Positions 4,139-17,811 of a stretch of 25,360 nucleotides of DNA are shown piece by piece. The notes under the pieces are model-generated. The model made no database searches. It worked only from the letters and a program-made list of their open reading frames with translations, and was not told the DNA's origin. The stretch is from a virus. Lineage: Duplodnaviria > Heunggongvirae > Uroviricota > Caudoviricetes. The position numbers and the translations under genes were made by a program. Positions within the stretch are counted from its first letter, which is position 1. Each line of letters opens with the position of its first letter. The stretch lies in IMG/VR virus record IMGVR_UViG_2529292905_000020. One strand, given 5' to 3'.

Positions 4139-4330
4139 TTAAAGACCTGCCGGGATTTCGTTATTATCCTGGTGAATAACTTTATCGACCGGGTAACAGT
4201 TACCGGGAATTTTCTGTTCGGTTGCTGCAGTCACACACTCCTGCATTGTCCTGTGAACACTGACTGCAATATCAACTGGCTCTCCGGAAACAAGAAAAAC
4301 TGTCAGAACAAGTGCAAATGCTGTATTCAT
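4139..4330 (-). CDS. ydfD: YdfD-like small protein (63 aa)
   Basis: Start chosen at internal ATG 4330 (MNTAFALVLTVFLVSG..., hydrophobic N-terminus), with AGGA 8 nt upstream. ATGA start/stop overlap with dicB. Sequence matches my recollection of Qin-prophage YdfD. Confidence 0.7.
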   Translation of the reverse strand: MNTAFALVLTVFLVSGEPVDIAVSVHRTMQECVTAATEQKIPGNCYPVDKVIHQDNNEIPAGL

Positions 4331-4515
4331 TGCCAGCATCCTTTTTGTATCGGACGTAAACGGGCCAGCATTGAAAGAATGCATATTTTATTTAATAACT
4401 CCCGTTCGTGTTTTCTCTTGTTAATGGCATCTTCAGTAAATACAGGGTTACTGATAGTGACACCAATTTCAAAACAACCTTCAGACGTATTAACGTTTGG
4501 TAATAACGTTTCCAT
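4327..4515 (-). CDS. dicB: DicB cell-division inhibitor (62 aa)
   Basis: METLLPNVNTSEGCFEIGVTISNPVFTEDAINKRKHERELLNKICILSMLARL... matches remembered DicB. GAGGA 7 nt upstream of ATG 4515. The ORF-track start at 4620 is probably an upstream extension. Confidence 0.85.
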   Translation of the reverse strand: METLLPNVNTSEGCFEIGVTISNPVFTEDAINKRKHERELLNKICILSMLARLRPIQKGCWQ

Positions 4516-4684
4516 TATCGCGTCCTCAACAATGAATTTTGTGATGCGGTGCCTGGTGCCTCCAGGTGACGTTAACCAGTTAACAATTAACGCCGGATAC
4601 AGTGAATCCCCCCATAACACTGTTTTTAGCTTTAACTGTTCCGCGTGCGCTTAGCCGCATTCACTGCATCACAAAATTCACTTT

Positions 4685-4740
4685 AAAAAGGGCGGACATC
4701 AGTTCATGGGCAAACAGATGCCGCCAAACGTCACCAGAAA
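4685..4740 (-). ncRNA. dicF: DicF-like small RNA
   Basis: Minus strand reads UUUCUGGUGACGUUUGGCGG (matches the DicF 5' region as I recall it), then a GGCGGCAUC...GAUGUCCGCC stem and CUUUUU. Lies just upstream of dicB as in Qin. Exact 5' and 3' ends are inferred. Confidence 0.75.
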
Positions 4741-5073
4741 ATTGATAACAGAGGGCGTTGCAGCGGGGTTGTCACTTAAGCGTATGGTCAACCTGACAAC
4801 CCGGTGTCCTCAACGGGGAAGGAATAACCCCGCCATACTTACCGCTGCGCCATTTCGCGGAGTGCCACAACCGGAAGCGCACGGTCGACGAAAATTTAAC
4901 GACAGGCTATCTATGAACCAGCAACCTCGCCGTGCGCTTTCGCGTTATGCTCTGACTTTTCAGAGAAATATCCTTTCAGTAAACTGTCAGTGCCGGATGT
5001 TCACCCGTGTCCGGCGCACGCACTCCACTTCACCCGTGGAGAACTCCTTAATTACCAACCCTCAGGAGGGTGA

Positions 5074-5307
5074 ATGTTAAAATCAACTCTTATTGCTAAA
5101 TGCCTTTATCAAAATCGCATGGTAAGCAGCATTTCAATAGGCGAGTCTGCAGTTAAAAGTATTTTCGAAGAGTACTTTCCCGGGCATGATTTTAATAAAT
5201 GGAATACCAAATTACCGCCAGCAGTTTCAACGCGTATTCTGAAAGCAACCGAAAGAGCAAGTACAATTCGCGTTAACTATTTCATTAAAGATTTGTGGGA
5301 TCTTTGA
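5074..5307 (+). CDS. Hypothetical protein (77 aa), antisense to the dicB operon
   Basis: ORF with AGGAGG 4 nt upstream of ATG 5074. AT-rich. 3' end overlaps the convergent 135-aa ORF by 23 nt. No recognised family. Confidence 0.3.
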   Translation: MLKSTLIAKCLYQNRMVSSISIGESAVKSIFEEYFPGHDFNKWNTKLPPAVSTRILKATERASTIRVNYFIKDLWDL

Positions 5308-5692
5308 TATCCACAGAGCCTAAAGTATGTGCATATGGATGTGCTATTATGCGCCCTCGCAGATTTGCATCATTTTCTAAATTCACTGAACGAAACAGGG
5401 CATCAACAAGGCTCTGTACAATGCAAAGGCAATCGAAGACTGTCGCCGTTTCTGTTTTGATTGATGAAAGAACATGGCCATTCACGCAAACAGAAATTAC
5501 CCGTTTATTAACATCGCTTTCCTGCTTTTGATTATCAGAACCATATAGCCCAGAAAAAGCATTGCGCACATTACGAACCATATTATCGATGGTTTCTTTT
5601 TCTGCGGTACTAAGGTCAAGAGTAGCCAGTTGTGAACGAACTATATTCGATGCCATTTCCTGTAATGGCGTTGGTAAATCTTTAAATTCCAT
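5285..5692 (-). CDS. Hypothetical protein (135 aa), AT-rich insert in the dicB operon
   Basis: ORF starts 20 nt downstream of ydfC with GAGG about 8 nt upstream of ATG 5692. AT-rich relative to neighbours. No recognised motif. Confidence 0.55.
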   Translation of the reverse strand: MEFKDLPTPLQEMASNIVRSQLATLDLSTAEKETIDNMVRNVRNAFSGLYGSDNQKQESDVNKRVISVCVNGHVLSSIKTETATVFDCLCIVQSLVDALFRSVNLENDANLRGRIIAHPYAHTLGSVDIKDPTNL

Positions 5693-5714: not shown

Positions 5715-5933
5715 TTAACGTGGGTATGTAATCATTCTGGCAATGCTTAATGCCGCTGCTTTTTCCAGATTGGTGATATCCTGCTCCAGAGCGGACAGAT
5801 TTTCAGCCTGCTTAGCCCTGGCTTCATTGGCCCATTTCAGGTCCTGCACCGCCTTAATTTTCTGGTGCATCCACTCATAAAGTTCATCATCGGTATAGTC
5901 TGGCGCGATGATGACGGGGGCTCGTTTCTGCAT
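5715..5933 (-). CDS. ydfC: YdfC-like protein (72 aa)
   Basis: MQKRAPVIIAPDYTDDELYEWM...LSIARMITYPR matches my recollection of Qin YdfC. Same operon position. Confidence 0.7.
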   Translation of the reverse strand: MQKRAPVIIAPDYTDDELYEWMHQKIKAVQDLKWANEARAKQAENLSALEQDITNLEKAAALSIARMITYPR

Positions 5934-6568: not shown

Positions 6569-6976
6569 TTATTTATTTGCGCTTCTTTTGCGAGCTTTGA
6601 GTAGTTCTTCAAAAAGTTTGTTGAAATTCTCAACTCGAGCACGCATCTCTGACAACAGAGCCTTTTGCTCTGACTCAGGCAGTGCGTCGAACAGTTGAAG
6701 CAACTCTTTTTGATCTTCTGTCAGATTGACTGGCTGATTATCTGGGATCGGTTCGCCTGGTTGCTTATCTTCATCTCCAAAAAGAAGCCAAGTCGGCGAG
6801 CACTGAAGCGCCTGGCTCAGTGCGAATAATCTCTTCCCCGCTGGCTGTGTTTCATCTCTTTCCCATTGAGAAATTGTTACGTGAGCCACTTTGACCAGCT
6901 TACCTAATGCGGCCTGAGACAGTTTTAATTTTTTTCGCCTGTATAAGAGGCGAGCACCGAAGGTTTCGTTTTTCAT
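6569..6976 (-). CDS. dicA: DicA repressor (HTH XRE family, cI-like)
   Basis: 135-aa ORF MKNETFGARLLYRRKKLKLSQAALGKLVKVAHVTISQWERDETQP... with a clear HTH motif. Divergent from dicC. Confidence 0.9.
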   Translation of the reverse strand: MKNETFGARLLYRRKKLKLSQAALGKLVKVAHVTISQWERDETQPAGKRLFALSQALQCSPTWLLFGDEDKQPGEPIPDNQPVNLTEDQKELLQLFDALPESEQKALLSEMRARVENFNKLFEELLKARKRSANK

Positions 6977-7815: not shown

Positions 7816-8827
7816 AAAGGTGAAAACCGGCAGTTCATCCAGTAAGTCAGTATTGACCTGGCTTGCTGATATGTGCGGTGCCGATTTGTGTGCATACCCG
7901 TCTGTATCTGCACTGGCAGAAGTAACGGAACTGAACAAAAAGACTGTGCAGGACAGCTTACGACACCTGATGGAGATTGGGTTAATTGTTGATACCGGTG
8001 AGAGAAAAGGCAGAACAAAGCAAATTGTGGTGTACCGACTTATCGGTGTAGAAGAAAGTGTTGCCGAGCCTGAATACACCCAAAAACGGGAGTCTTTAAA
8101 GGTGGGTAAAATTGGTGCTGTTAATAAAAACAGTACCGAAAATGGTTATGTTTCAGCACAAAACAGACCCAAAAACAGAACTCTTAGCTGCATGGAAAAT
8201 AACCAAAGACACCCAAATTTTCCATCAAAGACACCCAAAAACGGATCACGGAACCCAAAGGAACCCAAAGATCTAAACCCCACACATAACGCACGCGAGA
8301 GTGCTCCGACCAGTGAGCAGGAAGTTTTGTCGTTACAGGCAGCCCCCCCTGTATTCCTGTATGGCCTGAGCGAACCCATCGGAAAATTCCCGATGAGCGA
8401 TAGCTGGTATCCGTCACGGGATTTTCGACGACGGGCTGCGTTGTGGGGGATGGCTTTGCCGGAGACAGAATTTACACCTGCTGAACTTGCCGCCTTCCGG
8501 GACTACTGGGCAGCGGAGGGGAAAGTGTTTACGCAGATTCAGTGGGAGCAGAAATTCGCCCGTCACGTAAATCACGTCAGGGCGCAGGTTAAACCAGTCA
8601 GCAAAGGGGTAAACCATGCAGCAGCACCAGGTGGCACCGCATCACGGGCAGTTCAGGAAATTCGGGCAGCACGTGAGCAGTGGGAACGTGAAAACGGATT
8701 TATCAGCGACGGAAACGGCCTGGAAGCTGTGGGAACTCATGGGGGTGGTTTATTCGAACCGCTGGATCCAGAAGAACGGGGCCGCACCTTCGAAGCTCTG
8801 GATTGCACAGATTGGCGCGATGACTGA
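7787..8827 (+). CDS. Replication initiation protein (O-like: N-terminal HTH, C-terminal DnaT-like segment)
   Basis: Start at ATG 7787 (MSIDALRWAKKV...) with AGGGG upstream. C-terminal SDSWYPSRDFRRRAALWG...FRDYWAAEGKVFTQIQWEQKF resembles the DnaT-like domain of lambdoid initiators. Contains iteron-like repeats. 3' end overlaps the P-like ORF out of frame. Confidence 0.75.
   Translation: MSIDALRWAKKVKTGSSSSKSVLTWLADMCGADLCAYPSVSALAEVTELNKKTVQDSLRHLMEIGLIVDTGERKGRTKQIVVYRLIGVEESVAEPEYTQKRESLKVGKIGAVNKNSTENGYVSAQNRPKNRTLSCMENNQRHPNFPSKTPKNGSRNPKEPKDLNPTHNARESAPTSEQEVLSLQAAPPVFLYGLSEPIGKFPMSDSWYPSRDFRRRAALWGMALPETEFTPAELAAFRDYWAAEGKVFTQIQWEQKFARHVNHVRAQVKPVSKGVNHAAAPGGTASRAVQEIRAAREQWERENGFISDGNGLEAVGTHGGGLFEPLDPEERGRTFEALDCTDWRDD
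8201..8271. repeat. Iteron-like direct repeats inside the O-like gene (putative ori)
   Basis: ACACCCAAA at 8209-8217 and 8231-8239; AACCCAAAG at 8253-8261 and 8263-8271. Falls in a low-complexity linker of the protein, as lambda ori lies within O. Confidence 0.45.
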
Positions 8828-11667: not shown

Positions 11668-12002
11668 CATCCTCGTCCTTCAGGACGTGGATTCTTTTTC
11701 CGGATGCCGCGCCAGCGGCATGTAGGGGCAGCTCACAAAACGGAAAAAATTGTACGCTAAGCCTCGCCAGGTGAACTGAATTCATTCCGATATGGGAATT
11801 CCCATATCGGGCGAAAACGGTTTGCTGTAACGGCAGAGTTAAGTAGGATTGCTGCGGGTGCTTGAGGCTATCTGCCTCGGGCATGAACACCAACGGCAGA
11901 TAGATAAAAGCCCCACCCGACTATAAATCGAAGTGAGGCCCCTATATGCTCGTCACATATAGATTGCCTCTTACGGACCGAAAGGTCAAGGAGAAGCAGG
12001 CT

Positions 12003-12158
12003 ATGAAGCAGCAAAAGGCGATGTTAATCGCCCTGATCGTCATCTGTTTAACCGTCATAGTGACGGCACTGGTAACGAGGAAAGACCTCTGCGAGGTACG
12101 AATCCGAACCGGCCAGACGGAGGTCGCTGTCTTCACAGCTTACGAACCTGAGGAGTAA
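12003..12158 (+). CDS. hokD: Hok/Gef-family membrane toxin (51 aa)
   Basis: MKQQKAMLIALIVICLTVIVTALVTRKDLCEVRIRTGQTEVAVFTAYEPEE is a Hok-family sequence, matching my recollection of HokD/RelF. Structured leader and 3' fold-back complement present. Confidence 0.85.
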   Translation: MKQQKAMLIALIVICLTVIVTALVTRKDLCEVRIRTGQTEVAVFTAYEPEE

Positions 12159-12386: not shown

Positions 12387-13274
12387 TCAGGCTGCCAGAT
12401 CATCGTTTCTGATGGAAGCATAATAAGCTTTTTCTGCTTCTGCCGGAGGGATATGACCCAGCCTTCCCAGCAATCGTCGATTGTTATACCAGTCCACCCA
12501 CGTGAGTGTGGCCAGTTCCACTTCTGCACGGTTTTTCCAGCTCTTACGGTGTATTACCTCCGCTTTGTAAAGACCATTGATGCTCTCCGCCATCGCGTTG
12601 TCATACGAGTCACCTGTACTCCCTGTTGATGCCAGCAGTTTTGCTTCTTTTAGTCGCTCCGTATAGGCCAGTGATACATACTGAGAACCTTTATCACTGT
12701 GATGGACTGTGCCGGACGGCCGACGGGCCCACAACGCCTGCTCCAGTGCATCCAGCACGAATGTCGTTTCCATAGACGATGAGACTCGCCACCCCACGAT
12801 GCATCCGGCAAACACATCAATGATGAACGCCACATAGACGAAGCCCTGCCATGTGCTGACGTAAGTAAAATCAGCCACCCACAGCTGGTCAGGACGTTCT
12901 GCCACGAACTGACGGTTTACGCGGTCGCCTGCGGAAACGGCTTTCCGGCTGACGGTAGTACGGACCTTTTTACCCCGGAGAACACCGGCAAGTCCCATAA
13001 CCGCCATGAGGCGCGCCACTGTACATCTGGCCACCCTGATACCTTCGCGTAACAACTGGCGCCAGACTTTACGCACACCGTACACCTGATGATTTTCATC
13101 GTATACGCGCTGTATCTCTCTCTTCAGCCAGTCATCGCGCTGCGCACGGGCACTGCGTTTATCAGGATGATGTCGCTGTTGCTGACAGTGGTAATACGTT
13201 GACGGGGCAATATGCAGTTCACTGCATACCGGTCCGACCCCGTACTGCTCACGCAGCTTATCCAGCAGTGGCAT
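12387..13274 (-). CDS. IS629 transposase OrfB (DDE catalytic domain)
   Basis: 295-aa ORF with the IS3-family OrfB C-terminus (...LGHIPPAEAEKAYYASIRNDDLAA). Confidence 0.9.
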   Translation of the reverse strand: MPLLDKLREQYGVGPVCSELHIAPSTYYHCQQQRHHPDKRSARAQRDDWLKREIQRVYDENHQVYGVRKVWRQLLREGIRVARCTVARLMAVMGLAGVLRGKKVRTTVSRKAVSAGDRVNRQFVAERPDQLWVADFTYVSTWQGFVYVAFIIDVFAGCIVGWRVSSSMETTFVLDALEQALWARRPSGTVHHSDKGSQYVSLAYTERLKEAKLLASTGSTGDSYDNAMAESINGLYKAEVIHRKSWKNRAEVELATLTWVDWYNNRRLLGRLGHIPPAEAEKAYYASIRNDDLAA

Positions 13275-13600
13275 TATTTTTTCCAGAGGCGGTCGAACTC
13301 CGCCTTCGCAAAATAAGCGGAAGCCTGGCGAAGGATATCGTTACTGCGGCGCAGTTCACGATTTTCACGTTCCAGCTCTTTCAGACGCTGACGTTCAGCG
13401 GTGGTGAATCCACCATCACCACTCCCGGTATCCCGCTCATGCTGACGAACCCACACACGCAGAGTCTCTGGCGTACAGCCAATCTTTGGGGCAATGGAAC
13501 AAATTGCCGCCCATTGTGAGTCATATTCGCCCTGACTTTCCAGAACCATACGAACTGCCCGTTGACGGACCTCGGGGGAAAAACGTGTATTTTTAGTCAT
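13274..13600 (-). CDS. IS629 transposase OrfA (HTH)
   Basis: 108-aa [22 protein letters not shown]... matching remembered IS629 OrfA. Its stop overlaps the OrfB ATG (TAATG) beside an A6 run. Confidence 0.9.
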
Positions 13601-16601: not shown

Positions 16602-16677
16602 GGCCCTTTAGCTCAGTGGTGAGAGCGAGCGACTCATAATCGCCAGGTCGCTGGTTCAAATCCAGCAAGGGCCACCA
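16602..16677 (+). tRNA. ileZ: tRNA-Ile2 (anticodon CAU, lysidine type)
   Basis: 76-nt cloverleaf. Acceptor GGCCCTT/AAGGGCC, anticodon loop CUCAUAA, T-loop TTCAAAT, encoded CCA. Closely resembles E. coli ileX. Confidence 0.9.
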
Positions 16678-16767: not shown

Positions 16768-16841
16768 GCGTTGTTAGCTCAGCAGGACAGAGCAATTGCC
16801 TTCTAAGCAATCGGTCACTGGTTCGACTCCAGTACAACGCG
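16768..16841 (+). tRNA. argO: tRNA-Arg (anticodon UCU)
   Basis: 74-nt cloverleaf. Acceptor GCGTTGT/ACAACGC, D-stem GCTC/GAGC, anticodon stem ATTGC/GCAAT with loop CTTCTAA, T-arm ACTGG-TTCGACT-CCAGT. 3' CCA not encoded. The argO name is positional (third tRNA of the Stx-phage-type trio). Confidence 0.85.
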
Positions 16842-17610: not shown

Positions 17611-17811
17611 TTTTTTTGTTTGCTGTTTATTAAAAACACTTCTGCATGGTGAATCCCCCTGTGCGGTGGGGCAATCAGCAAGAAGGAATATGGGGTAATC
17701 GCGGATTCAGGTGCTGATACTGAATTCACCGGGAGGCACCCGGCACCATGCTTTGCCACAAAAGTGTTATTTCTGTTTTTCTCAAACTATCATCGTTATC
17801 CCTTTATTTTC

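Follow-up and report, generated by a model that had tools for sequence, protein, structure and literature searches.

Two stem-loops that share a 10-nt sequence stand side by side next to the gene of the small RNA DicF in a lambdoid prophage, and the question they raise is whether they contribute to the production of DicF, act as a signal of their own, or have no function at all. The stretch of DNA analysed, referred to here as the window, comprises 25,360 nt, and the segment in question covers positions 4760-5060. The original prediction offered three readings of this segment, namely an RNase III/E processing platform for the DicF precursor, a separate structured RNA, and a protein-binding repeat; the first was supported for the interval as a whole and the other two were not. 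Its description of the segment was likewise upheld in part, since both hairpins and the exact 10-mer are present, while the coordinates, the division into loop and stem, the strand and the GC content were corrected.

Identity and orientation of the segment

Judged by its sequence, the window is an E. coli O157:H7 Qin-like (PPompW-type) lambdoid prophage. It was found to be 100% identical to O157:H7 chromosomes, in which dicB, ydfC and a dicA-like repressor are annotated on the minus strand, and the dicBF operon, the PL-equivalent of a lambdoid phage, has this orientation in the window. Both in the annotated O157 record that is identical to the window and in one derived from K-12, dicA, ydfC, DicF, dicB and the leader all lie on the same strand. 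Positions 4760-5060 form the untranslated ydfC-dicF spacer within the dicBF (early-left) operon, whose direction of reading is that of the minus strand. The spacer is positioned between ydfC (or the last upstream ORF) and DicF, and the K-12 ydfC-dicF spacer aligns with window positions 4650-5060, with approximately 96% identity over 5060-4712. The segment itself is therefore already known, as the well-studied untranslated region that gives rise to DicF. Taken jointly, the identity of the region and the DicF processing pathway leave very little room for doubt.

It was noted that the placement of the segment upstream of DicF is correct only when it is read on the minus strand, where DicF itself is encoded (4740..4688). 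Similarly, the segment is GC-rich relative to its flanks (0.51-0.54, approximately 0.53, compared to 0.37-0.47), but in absolute terms it is close to the E. coli average. The core at 4688-4949 was found at 7,984 places, in 4,082 of the 5,426 complete E. coli genomes (approximately 75%). Apart from one contig with the label Veillonella, every locus recovered in a DicB-anchored scan of genome contigs was from Escherichia or Shigella.

The RNase III helix and the DicF precursor

The part of the spacer nearest to DicF contains the following features.

4688 to 4740, minus strand: DicF sRNA, an allele with a variant terminator stem-loop (Rfam RF00039 and alignment to K-12 DicF)
4730 to 4749, minus strand: 7-bp hairpin GUUAUCA-AUUUUC-UGGUGAC, invariant, with an AU-rich loop
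4741 to 4877, minus strand: 5' extension (137 nt) present in the 190-nt pre-DicF, with almost no variation across all loci (alignment A2)
4866 to 4949, minus strand: RNase III processing hairpin with a 21-bp basal helix (5' arm 4949-4927, 3' arm 4888-4866) and an apex at 4926-4889

DicF matched Rfam RF00039 with 43.5 bits (E = 5.8e-08), short of the gathering score of 48, and it was called a DicF allele because of its synteny and the identity of its seed region UUCUGGUGACGUUUGGCGG to that of K-12, the difference being confined to the terminator loop. The same Rfam search, run at a relaxed threshold over 4400-5500, recorded a weak STnc100-like match downstream of DicF.

Prior work established that a 190-nt DicF species owes its 5' end to RNase III and that the 53-nt form is made by RNase E, that no internal promoter is found for DicF, and that the upstream ydfA transcript is no longer detected after deletion of rnc (PMC10448788). 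On these data, the approximately 210 nt proximal to DicF (4949-4741) would form a conserved processing platform. RNase III would cut the 21-bp helix at about 4877 to release the 190-nt pre-DicF, a published step for which the position, probably 4878/4877, was calculated from 190 - 53 = 137 nt 5' of DicF. RNase E would then cut at 4741/4740 to release mature DicF; the dependence on RNase E is published, and the cut appears to fall in the AU-rich loop of the 4730..4749 hairpin, a loop position that we read from the letters of the window. We found a double-stranded helix at the published RNase III site, approximately 137 nt 5' of DicF, and both the 190-nt species and the sequence in Fig. S1B of that work (PMC10448788) agree with a helix at 4949-4927 / 4888-4866.

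The helix coincides with inverted repeat I2 of the repeat finder and is paired in 98.8% of cells across 93 variants. All eight one-sided changes are wobble-compatible in the DicF sense only (for example UG:73 / CG:20), and the hairpin is 6 kcal/mol more stable in that sense (-34.9 kcal/mol compared to -28.8 in the opposite one). The apex is hypervariable, with at least eight unrelated versions. Downstream of the cut, the pre-DicF extension contains helices at 4834-4828 / 4818-4812 and 4802-4788 / 4779-4766 (inverted repeats I1 and I4), and the 4730..4749 hairpin is paired in 99.7% of cells, with six of its seven pairs never varying. Coding in the extension was ruled out by single-nucleotide indels (CCUU-CCCC compared to CCUUCCCCC). 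The proposal of a processing platform therefore holds for the interval as a whole, where it was already published (PMC10448788), and fails for the two motif hairpins, which are 5' of the cut and outside the 190-nt precursor, the RNase III site being 115-165 nt downstream of them. As for the ends of the RNA, transcriptome-wide RNase III papers mention dicF by citation only, and an E. coli small-RNA deep-sequencing survey and EHEC sRNA papers gave no 5' or 3' ends for the ydfC-dicF spacer.

The hairpin module and competing explanations

Upstream of the RNase III helix, the spacer and its surroundings contain these features.

4952 to 4990, minus strand: imperfect long hairpin CUGAC...GUCAG, the last structure before the RNase III helix
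4965 to 4950, minus strand: short hairpin C, CUCUGA-AAAG-UCAGAG, an alternative to the 4952..4990 hairpin
4992 to 5015, minus strand: hairpin B, in the DicF sense GCCGGA-CACGGGUGAACA-UCCGGC (direct reading and repeat finder)
5023 to 5041, minus strand: hairpin A, in the DicF sense CUCCAC-GGGUGAA-GUGGAG (direct reading and repeat finder)
5074 to 5307, plus strand: 77-aa ORF with a strong Shine-Dalgarno sequence, AGGAGG, at 5064-5069 (WP_000920491.1, hypothetical protein; phrog_10348, unknown function)
4706 to 5080, plus strand: 124-aa Arg-rich ORF, not a gene, its frame not being preserved

On the plus strand, hairpin B is formed by GCCGGA (4992-4997) and TCCGGC (5010-5015) around a loop of TG followed by TTCACCCGTG, and hairpin A by CTCCAC (5023-5028) and GTGGAG (5036-5041) around the loop TTCACCC. 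The exact 10-mer TTCACCCGTG, which reads CACGGGTGAA on the minus strand, occurs at 5000-5009 in hairpin B and at 5029-5038 in hairpin A and nowhere else in the 25-kb window. Two stem-loops sharing a 10-nt motif had been described correctly, with motif coordinates that were off by 1 nt and 3 nt; the motif does not, however, occupy both loops, since in hairpin A its GTG belongs to the stem. The repeat alone is weak evidence, because within the same 750 nt the repeat finder also reports two other exact 9-mer repeats, which are due to chance.

We assessed the conservation of the module, of which complete E. coli genomes contain approximately 4,400 copies, among 201 DicF loci. It is absent from about a quarter of them, where unrelated hairpins stand in its place; the commonest locus type is that of K-12 (81 of the 201), which retains both hairpins. 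Mosaic junctions are discrete (5074, 5060, 5038, 5020, 4963 and 4949), and one of them falls inside hairpin A (5038) and another just 3' of it (5020). The stem of hairpin B is paired in 99.3% of cells and never covaries, while for hairpin A the proportion of paired cells in alignment A1 is 88.9%, and 8-13 of the 50 variants break it. The 4952..4990 hairpin is paired in 96.5% of alignment cells, without covariation and with one conserved U.G pair that exists in the DicF sense only; the outer pairs of short hairpin C are mismatched in 31 of 50 variants.

The loops behave differently from the stems. Hairpin A reads GGGUGAG (the commonest variant), GGGUCAG, GGAUGAG, GGGUAAG or GGGUUAG, among others, the loop of hairpin B has at least nine versions, and loop columns vary about as often as unpaired neighbouring columns. 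Variable columns numbered three of 24 in stems A and B compared to 31 of 70 among their neighbours (Fisher p = 0.006), column counts that are not independent events because the sequences are closely related and share ancestry. Across 190 copies the trend was the same (5/24 stem columns and 10/19 loop columns). Stem constraint was significant in the cassette-type loci (p = 0.012) and not in the K-12-type loci alone (2/24 compared to 17/70 variable; p = 0.14). Since the stems vary less than their neighbours and the loops vary like unpaired columns, the hairpins appear to matter as structure and not as sequence. With loops that drift in these alignments, the 10-mer does not qualify as a conserved signal. 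Its presence in both hairpins is a coincidence between two drifting loops, specific to a lineage, and not a signal for recognition. Conservation of the hairpins and the motif was thus confirmed by half, for the stems where the module exists and not for the motif.

Covariation, which the original prediction named among its checks, on aligned homologous regions, was not detected for hairpin A or B in a sample without distant homologues (RNAalifold covariation term -0.02). No pair of hairpin B is changed on both sides, and both-side changes in hairpin A come only from non-homologous replacement sequence. RNA structure is therefore unproven on either strand.

On either strand, the complete 396-nt spacer forms a more stable fold than its dinucleotide shuffles do (z = -3.5 and -3.9). 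The 61-nt hairpin pair reaches -22.1 kcal/mol in the DicF sense (z = -0.75; 46 of 200 shuffles as good) and -24.5 kcal/mol in the opposite sense (z = -3.4; none of 200 shuffles as good), the stronger plus-sense score being partly a composition effect, as G-rich shuffles fold well. The stem of hairpin B gains 2-4 extra pairs in the plus sense, including tandem U.G/G.U (-16.5 to -20.4 kcal/mol compared to -12 to -14). A long-range pairing between the 3' arm of hairpin A and GCACUCCGC (4866-4858), suggested by the 396-nt MFE, was rejected, as K-12 and most alleles read GCAACCCGC or GCAAUCCGC there. Among stem substitutions, a G-to-A change (6 copies) is tolerated as a wobble in the plus sense only, a C-to-T change (1 copy) in the minus sense only, and three transversions (27 of 190 copies, K-12 included) break the pair in both senses. 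With 108 extra metagenome copies, two substitution events fit the plus sense, one fits the minus sense and three fit neither, so that the DicF sense is not favoured.

The explanation that we favour combines the conserved DicF processing core with an optional structural hairpin module, and as a whole it is probable. The motif hairpins (5041-5023 and 5015-4992) belong to a 5' module that is optional and recombines. Since this module precedes the RNase III cut, they would stay with the upstream mRNA fragment. As putative sequence-independent structural elements of the dicBF-sense RNA, they would hinder 3'-to-5' exonucleases near the new 3' end and so protect the upstream fragment, and/or insulate the folding of the RNase III helix from whichever gene lies upstream. 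This specific role we put forward tentatively, with somewhat less than even confidence. The stabiliser idea draws on the loss of the ydfA transcript after rnc deletion and on the ability of 3' stem-loops such as REP elements to impede PNPase and RNase II. That a hairpin is wanted here in the dicBF sense is suggested by three observations: each of the unrelated 5' modules supplies a strong hairpin of its own, 20-60 nt ahead of the RNase III helix; the replacement hairpin of four locus types (L018, L100, L151 and L182) has compensatory changes and G.U pairs that function in the DicF sense only; and the U.G pair at 4990-4952 likewise exists in that sense. The four-type hairpin reaches -10.4 to -13.0 kcal/mol in the DicF sense, whereas two of its four versions fall to -2.2 and -5.6 in the opposite sense. 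The hairpins are nonetheless dispensable for keeping DicF, as variants without both of them persist (type L170, with a 29-nt deletion mediated by the 10-mer repeat, and the approximately 25% of loci with other modules).

In the main rival the hairpin pair acts on the plus strand, where it would be the conserved 5' leader of a variable slot for small ORFs, possibly preceded closely by a weak promoter; the 5'-terminal stem-loop would stabilise the mRNA, and the transcript would be antisense to the dicBF spacer. The 77-aa ORF is one of at least eight unrelated small ORFs that fill the slot beside the hairpin module in different prophages, each with a strong Shine-Dalgarno sequence; in 54 of 154 loci such an ORF begins 78-108 nt, and mostly 82-87 nt, beyond hairpin B on the plus strand. 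These ORFs fall in recurrent PHROG families. Four unrelated ORFs have the identical Shine-Dalgarno sequence and spacer, which implies a recombination junction exactly at the ATG (5074). The genes to the left are all on the minus strand, so any promoter of the slot ORFs must fall in 4515-5074. The folding and substitution data also lean this way in part: the pair beats shuffles in the plus sense only, the G-to-A stem variant wobbles there only, hairpin B reaches 9-11 bp in the plus sense only with loop-edge bases that are the conserved part of the loop, and the significant stem constraint comes from cassette-type loci. However, the K-12 type retains both hairpins without a plus-strand ORF, ydfC there abutting the module, and 4760-5060 contains no consensus promoter on either strand, the best candidate by eye matching 8 of 12 positions. 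The replacement hairpins have G.U pairs functional in the dicBF sense only, the plus-sense z-score owes something to composition, and a published plus-strand transcript was not found here in a literature search. Sequestration of the 77-aa ORF's Shine-Dalgarno sequence by the leader CUCCU was rejected (pairing probability 0.49, below the 0.76 of shuffled controls) and holds only in the unrelated L004 and L012 modules. From this evidence, we regard the plus-strand leader as unlikely.

A combined form, also improbable, would make the module a bidirectional junction element, part of the dicBF transcript and at the same time the shared leader of the hypervariable plus-strand slot, antisense into the DicF precursor. 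It would contribute stabilising stem-loops at the 5' terminus, and a weak promoter might lie at about 4957-4985. If so, lambdoid prophages would swap unrelated small ORFs at this slot, which might be accessory or anti-defence genes, and antisense transcription into the DicF precursor could modulate DicF/DicB production. Transcription of the slot ORFs from within the leader could thereby shift the output of DicF and DicB, both of which influence cell division and, in EHEC, type III secretion.

Alternatively, the hairpins could be short palindromes without a function, retained through their linkage to the strongly conserved DicF leader and marking a junction at which phage modules recombine, the 10-mer being due to chance or a small local duplication. 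The lack of covariation, the two mosaic junctions at the hairpins, the absence of the module from about 25% of loci, the pair-breaking transversions in 27 of 190 copies, the L170 deletion, the chance 9-mer repeats nearby and a DicF-sense fold no better than shuffles all agree with this. We consider it rather improbable, since the stems vary 3-4 times less than the adjacent loops, linker and spacer (p = 0.006, with the same direction in 190 copies), and a strong hairpin occurs at the same place in unrelated modules independently, in one case with compensatory changes.

Another reading would have a protein of phage or host origin bind the two loops in the nascent RNA, in a nut/boxB- or put-like process of antitermination that carries RNA polymerase past the DicF terminator and into dicB. 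In its favour, the similar loops are on neighbouring stem-loops, expression of dicB depends on readthrough of a strong intrinsic terminator (DicF) downstream of them, and the operon is equivalent to that of PL. However, the loop sequence is not conserved, the module is missing from about 25% of DicF-dicB loci, and a covariance model of the pair found no second copy in the 25-kb window, the early-right operon included (best other match 8 bits, E = 0.35). At HK022 putL/putR and lambda nutL/nutR all matches of the model were at or below 9 bits. No boxA-like sequence adjoins the hairpins as read directly, the small ORFs between promoter and spacer have no curated Pfam match, N-like families included, and the element is several hundred nucleotides from the operon promoter (nearest possible site beyond the 118-aa ORF, at approximately 6400). 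The features that define a nut site (boxB with a conserved loop, boxA, copies in both operons, an N-like protein nearby) were not found here, nor was the two-stem-loop RNA just downstream of PL and PR that defines put, and nothing was recorded at the HK022 cI-nun or cro-cII intervals. The absence of a second copy and the drift of the loops already largely refute this reading, which was rejected and to which we assign very little probability. The protein-binding repeat of the original prediction fails on similar grounds, as the loop sequence drifts, the hairpins are missing or replaced in about a quarter of loci, and the prophage has no second copy.

Neither an independent RNA nor a coding sequence was recovered from the segment. 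A separate structured RNA was not borne out: at the relaxed threshold Rfam returned nothing in 4760-5060 on either strand, a promoter/terminator consensus scan of that interval predicted none on either strand, and the proposed helices have no compensatory changes of the kind expected of a structured cis-regulatory or independent noncoding RNA. The 124-aa ORF had been judged unlikely to be coding, correctly: of 201 homologous loci, only 11 keep it intact (at least 110 aa), and in 186 it falls below 60 aa. It is also without a Pfam match, and it was rejected as a gene. Least credible of all is the translation of a minus-strand 10-codon mini-ORF in which the motif copies supply start and stop (Shine-Dalgarno UAAGGAG at 5052-5046, GUG at 5035, UGA at 5005, peptide M(K/R)WSACAGHG), which has a strong Shine-Dalgarno-like sequence 10 nt ahead of the GUG and is found in 88 of 120 loci with this context (95 counting the extended K-12 form), but which loses its start codon (to GUC, GUA or GUU) in 24 of the 120, loses its stop in K-12-type copies so that the frame runs to 20 codons, has an in-frame UAG in the L005 and L023 types, both also without the Shine-Dalgarno sequence, shows a long 10-nt spacing to the start, and accumulates substitutions in the pattern of loops and unlike codons. 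With the start or stop gone in many homologues, the mini-ORF was rejected, and like the 124-aa ORF it does not preserve its reading frame.

Significance and relation to known systems

As it stands, the segment matters little in itself, the DicF processing region being well-studied. The RNase III/RNase E pathway was reportedly defined by Faubladier in 1990, and it was re-confirmed in 2023. For work on DicF in EHEC, the favoured explanation offers several practical points. Every DicF locus examined shares the RNase III substrate, a 21-bp helix capped by a hypervariable apex, and the leader divides into a core (4949-4688) that is universal and a 5' module that can be exchanged. Naturally occurring alleles without the RNase III helix (deleted in the L010 and L050 types) or without both hairpins are possible ready-made mutants, and O157-type prophages have an opposite-strand slot for unrelated small ORFs abutting the leader.

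Compared with lambda nut and HK022 put, the locus is similar in having one or two stem-loops in the nascent RNA of a lambdoid early operon, upstream of terminators. It differs in that it has no match in sequence or structure and no right-operon copy, its loops are unconserved, it is far from the promoter, and it is optional among DicF loci.

The REP and other 3' stabilisers are closer in kind, and the stem-loop work on the malE-malF REP stabiliser is said to be that of Newbury et al. in 1987. Both consist of short stem-loops, rich in G+C and lacking a U-tract, in intercistronic RNA that is not translated, with conserved structure and free loops; a further likely similarity is that, once the endonuclease has cut, the hairpins would be close to the 3' end of the upstream fragment. 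We observed constrained stems, and replacement hairpins in other modules, with a pair that does not exceed shuffles in the DicF sense. Resemblance in sequence is limited to the GCCGGAU...AUCCGGC stem base, compared by eye. In contrast to REP, the hairpin module is confined to prophage dicF loci and not dispersed in the chromosome, and its stabilising role is putative.

DicF has been called the first example of the 3'-UTR-derived or intra-operonic sRNAs that arise by RNase III or RNase E processing (PMC9438474). The core of the present locus is no different from this class, with an sRNA excised from a polycistronic mRNA, a duplex for RNase III and an AU-rich single-stranded site for RNase E, while the motif hairpins are outside any described processing step.

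In contrast to the K-12 Qin prophage, the window has ydfC separated from the spacer by a module of approximately 650 bp, which holds a 135-aa ORF (minus strand) and the 77-aa ORF (plus strand), and its DicF allele has a different terminator loop. The K-12 loops read GGGUGAG and CACGGGUGCGCA, so that the exact 10-mer repeat is lacking there, and the closing pair of hairpin B is broken. In other respects the K-12 ydfC-dicF spacer is the same element, being 96% identical over 5060-4712, in the same position, and with the same RNase III helix, pre-DicF extension and both hairpins.

The dicBF operon and its DicF allele

E. coli O157:H7 chromosomes were 100% identical to the window (query 4650-5320), and the phage-collection matches were 'PPompW'-type prophages and phage Evi. 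From the annotation of the identical RefSeq record, it was noted that the minus strand carries all genes around the hairpins, with approximately 540 nt free of any minus-strand gene between the 135-aa ORF and dicB. Together, these genes make up the dicBF (early-left, PL-like) operon of a lambdoid prophage of the Qin type.

Genes around the hairpins, from the identical RefSeq record
6976..6569, minus strand: DicA-like repressor
between the DicA-like repressor and ydfC, minus strand: 99/118-aa ORF
5933..5715, minus strand: ydfC
5692..5285, minus strand: 135-aa ORF
4515..4327, minus strand: dicB
beyond dicB, minus strand: DUF1482/ydfD homologue, then exonuclease, xis and int

In a K-12-derived genome, the intergenic spacer between ydfC and dicF aligned with window 4650-5060, with 96% identity over 5060-4712. 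DicF itself was not called at the Rfam gathering threshold and was detected at 4739..4690 (minus strand) at a relaxed threshold (43.5 bits vs a gathering score of 48; E = 5.8e-08). Because DicF lies on the minus strand, the interval 4760-5060 is 5' of it in the operon sense; the original prediction of a segment upstream of DicF holds in this sense, with its landmark 77-aa ORF (5074-5307) on the opposite strand. The seed region was the same as in K-12 DicF and the terminator loop was the sole difference. This allele (4688-4740, minus strand), with a differing terminator stem-loop that is 2 nt shorter than that of K-12, was carried by only 2 of the 93 distinct leaders.

Several other RNA features were recorded. 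The dicF-dicB spacer (4496-4701, minus strand) bears a weak likeness to Rfam STnc100 (32 bits vs a gathering score of 47). On the opposite strand, at a distance of 13 kb, a copy with a full score (17615-17787, plus strand; 100.8 bits) follows two tRNA genes (16602-16674 and 16768-16841, both plus), and an RNA element may be common to both regions. Besides these tRNA genes, further Rfam matches were the ALIL frameshift pseudoknot of an IS3-family element (13203-13319, minus) and the sok antitoxin RNA of a hok/sok locus (11856-12005, plus). A 22.9-kb contig in a MAG labelled Veillonella parvula (L007, JAGZPX010000007.1) contained a dicB/DicF locus with 85% protein identity; this contig almost certainly comes from an Escherichia prophage and was mis-binned.

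A conserved processing core

DicF is processed from a polycistronic transcript that starts at dicBp, with the 5' end of a 190-nt species generated by RNase III and that of a 53-nt species by RNase E, and no internal promoter was found (Ragunathan et al. 2023, PMC10448788, re-confirming Faubladier et al. 1990). We collected 201 DicF loci from viral contigs and genomes; their 473-nt leaders comprised 129 distinct sequences, and only 4949..4688 was universal. Among 5,426 complete E. coli genomes, 4,082 carried this core, with 7,984 occurrences in all.

Features of the core leader
4949-4927 with 4888-4866, minus strand: 21-bp RNase III helix; 98.8% of cells paired in the core-leader alignment (A2)
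4889-4926, minus strand: apex of the RNase III hairpin; at least eight unrelated sequence versions of differing lengths, basal helix kept
core, 5' of DicF, minus strand: 137-nt extension with almost no variation and two additional helices (A2)
4749-4743 / 4736-4730, minus strand: invariant 7-bp hairpin whose AUUUUC loop contains the DicF 5' end

All eight one-sided changes in the RNase III helix were wobble-compatible in the DicF sense (e.g. U.G in 73 sequences and C-G in 20), and the hairpin was 6 kcal/mol more stable in this sense than in the opposite one. A conserved duplex with a variable apex is the pattern that would be expected if RNase III required nothing of its substrate but the duplex. 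The RNase III cut probably falls near 4878/4877, as calculated from 190 - 53 = 137 nt, in the middle of the 3' arm of the helix. The published coordinate 813/814 fits this placement if position 1 is a dicBp start site between dicA and ydfA, a match that is our own arithmetic on K-12-derived genome coordinates and not a published statement. The published sequence containing the RNase III site (Fig. S1B of PMC10448788) starts within the apex of the hairpin as defined here. The RNase E cut for the DicF 5' end (4741/4740) lies in the AUUUUC loop of the 4730-4749 hairpin, in which 6 of 7 pairs were without variation among 93 distinct leaders. Single-nucleotide indels in the 137-nt extension exclude coding.

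Natural deletions through short direct repeats were also observed (L010 and L050 types, with L040 and L085 among the deletion loci). The L010/L050 types lacked the entire RNase III helix, with 85 nt gone between CGCGAAA..GCG repeats (repeat family D1, 4843-4859 / 4928-4944). DicF and dicB were retained both here and in a second deletion type, L170.

Two motif hairpins in a mosaic 5' module

Both predicted stem-loops were present, hairpin B pairing GCCGGA (4992-4997) with TCCGGC (5010-5015) and hairpin A pairing CTCCAC (5023-5028) with GTGGAG (5036-5041). The 10-mer TTCACCCGTG was repeated exactly at 5000-5009 and 5029-5038, 1 and 3 nt from where it had first been placed, and it was found nowhere else in the window. 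It had been assigned to both loops, but in hairpin A its GTG belongs to the stem. The hairpins and repeat are therefore genuine, and the errors in their coordinates were small. By itself the repeat is weak as evidence, since two unrelated exact 9-mer repeats occurred by chance within the same 750 nt. The description of the segment as GC-rich applies only relative to AT-rich phage DNA (GC 0.51-0.54 vs 0.37-0.47 in the flanks).

Hairpins A and B lie 5' of the RNase III helix within a mosaic 5' module, which was found at 4,414 places in 2,802 genomes. Homology to the window started at discrete junctions; both hairpins were missing in 47 of 201 loci, and hairpin B alone was kept in 32.

Junctions at which homology to the window starts among the 201 DicF loci
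5160: 18 loci
5074: 25 loci
5060 (K-12 type): 81 loci
5038, inside hairpin A: 19 loci
5020, between hairpins A and B: 16 loci
4963: 6 loci
4949: 36 loci

The shared 10-mer was not conserved among homologues. The common form was CACGGGTGAG in both loops, and the exact 10-mer pair was specific to the window type; K-12 carries GAG and GCG, and further loop alleles included GGGTCAG, GGATGAG, GGGTAAG, CACGGATAAGAA, CACGGGGGAACA and more. Across 50 variants of the module (alignment A1), 99.3% of cells in the hairpin B stem were paired without any covarying pair, hairpin A was broken in 8-13 variants, and the outer pairs of the short hairpin C (4965-4950, minus strand) were mismatched in 31; the RNAalifold covariation term was -0.02. 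Stem columns varied less often than neighboring columns (3/24 vs 31/70; Fisher p = 0.006), with the same direction in K-12-type loci (2/24 vs 17/70; p = 0.14) and cassette-type loci (1/24 vs 20/70; p = 0.012). With 108 additional metagenome copies, 5/24 stem and 10/19 loop columns were variable. Loop variation was about as frequent as in unpaired neighbors. As the sequences are related to one another, none of these counts represents independent events. These column counts therefore suggest that the stems are mildly constrained and the shared motif is not. The 10-mer is not a signal and is, if anything, a liability, because the L170 type has lost the 29 nt between two CACGGGTGAG copies (5009-5038), destroying both hairpins.

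Strand of action and proposed role

Evidence on the strand that the hairpins serve points both ways. Action in the DicF sense is favored by unrelated 5' modules, which have a strong hairpin of their own 20-60 nt ahead of the RNase III helix, and by one hairpin version (L018/L100/L151/L182) with compensatory changes whose G.U pairs function in the DicF sense only (-10.4 to -13.0 kcal/mol; in the opposite sense, two of the four gave -2.2 and -5.6). The adjoining imperfect hairpin (4990-4952) retains a DicF-sense-specific U.G pair, and K-12, the commonest module type, has no gene on the other strand. On either strand, the 396-nt spacer gave a better fold than its dinucleotide-shuffled controls (z = -3.5 and -3.9). 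Taken separately, the 61-nt hairpin pair was unusually stable in the opposite, plus-strand sense only (-24.5 kcal/mol, z = -3.4, vs -22.1 kcal/mol, z = -0.75, no better than shuffles, in the DicF sense). In that opposite sense hairpin B gains 2-4 pairs (tandem U.G/G.U plus C-G) involving the conserved loop-edge bases, and G-to-A, the transition seen most often in the stems (6 copies), gives a wobble only there. The plus strand also has small ORFs with strong SDs, at least eight and unrelated to one another, that start 78-108 nt (mostly 82-87) past hairpin B. However, no promoter was predicted in this sense, SD sequestration was unsupported for the window's module, and no report of a plus-strand transcript here was found.

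These ORFs (61-106 aa; 54 of 154 loci) occupy a variable-gene slot opposite to dicBF that adjoins the 5' module (5074-5307, plus strand, and L017, L021, L011, L111, L122, L184, L185, L004 and L012). Their PHROG families are separate and of unknown function, and no convincing promoter was found for them. Four unrelated slot ORFs have an identical SD and spacer, which places the recombination junction exactly at the ATG. In the L004 and L012 modules, unrelated to that of the window, the SD of the slot ORF forms part of the 3' arm of a hairpin of 8-11 bp (pairing probability 0.97-1.0 vs 0.53 for shuffled upstream sequence), which looks like translational control by SD sequestration.

Four other readings (ALTERNATIVES) were tested and rejected. 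For a nut- or put-type antiterminator, the hairpin-pair covariance model matched only itself in the window (94 bits; next 8 bits, E = 0.35), with no match at HK022 putL/putR or lambda nutL/nutR. Only 11 of 201 loci had an intact 124-aa ORF, already judged unlikely to be coding in the original prediction; a 10-codon mini-ORF bounded by the two copies of the motif lacked the start codon in 24 of 120 loci and, in K-12, the stop codon; and long-range pairing in the 396-nt MFE was not conserved.

The suggested processing platform was borne out for the interval as a whole, where it was already published, and not for the two motif hairpins. In K-12, transcription from dicBp passes through the spacer, RNase III cuts the 21-bp helix and RNase E then trims the product to DicF, published steps whose structural basis was verified here. 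Hairpins A and B, with the 4990-4952 hairpin, would stay on the upstream fragment, approximately 50-100 nt from its new 3' end. As stem-loops of a generic kind, they may slow 3' exonucleases, insulate the folding of the RNase III helix from the variable genes upstream, or both. Such a role would fit their recurrent replacement by other hairpins and the rnc mutant, in which the upstream ydfA transcript was no longer detected (PMC10448788). The feature belongs to the dicBF operon as an ordinary component that was already known; the only mildly new points are the leader's modular anatomy and the neighboring small-ORF slot on the opposite strand.
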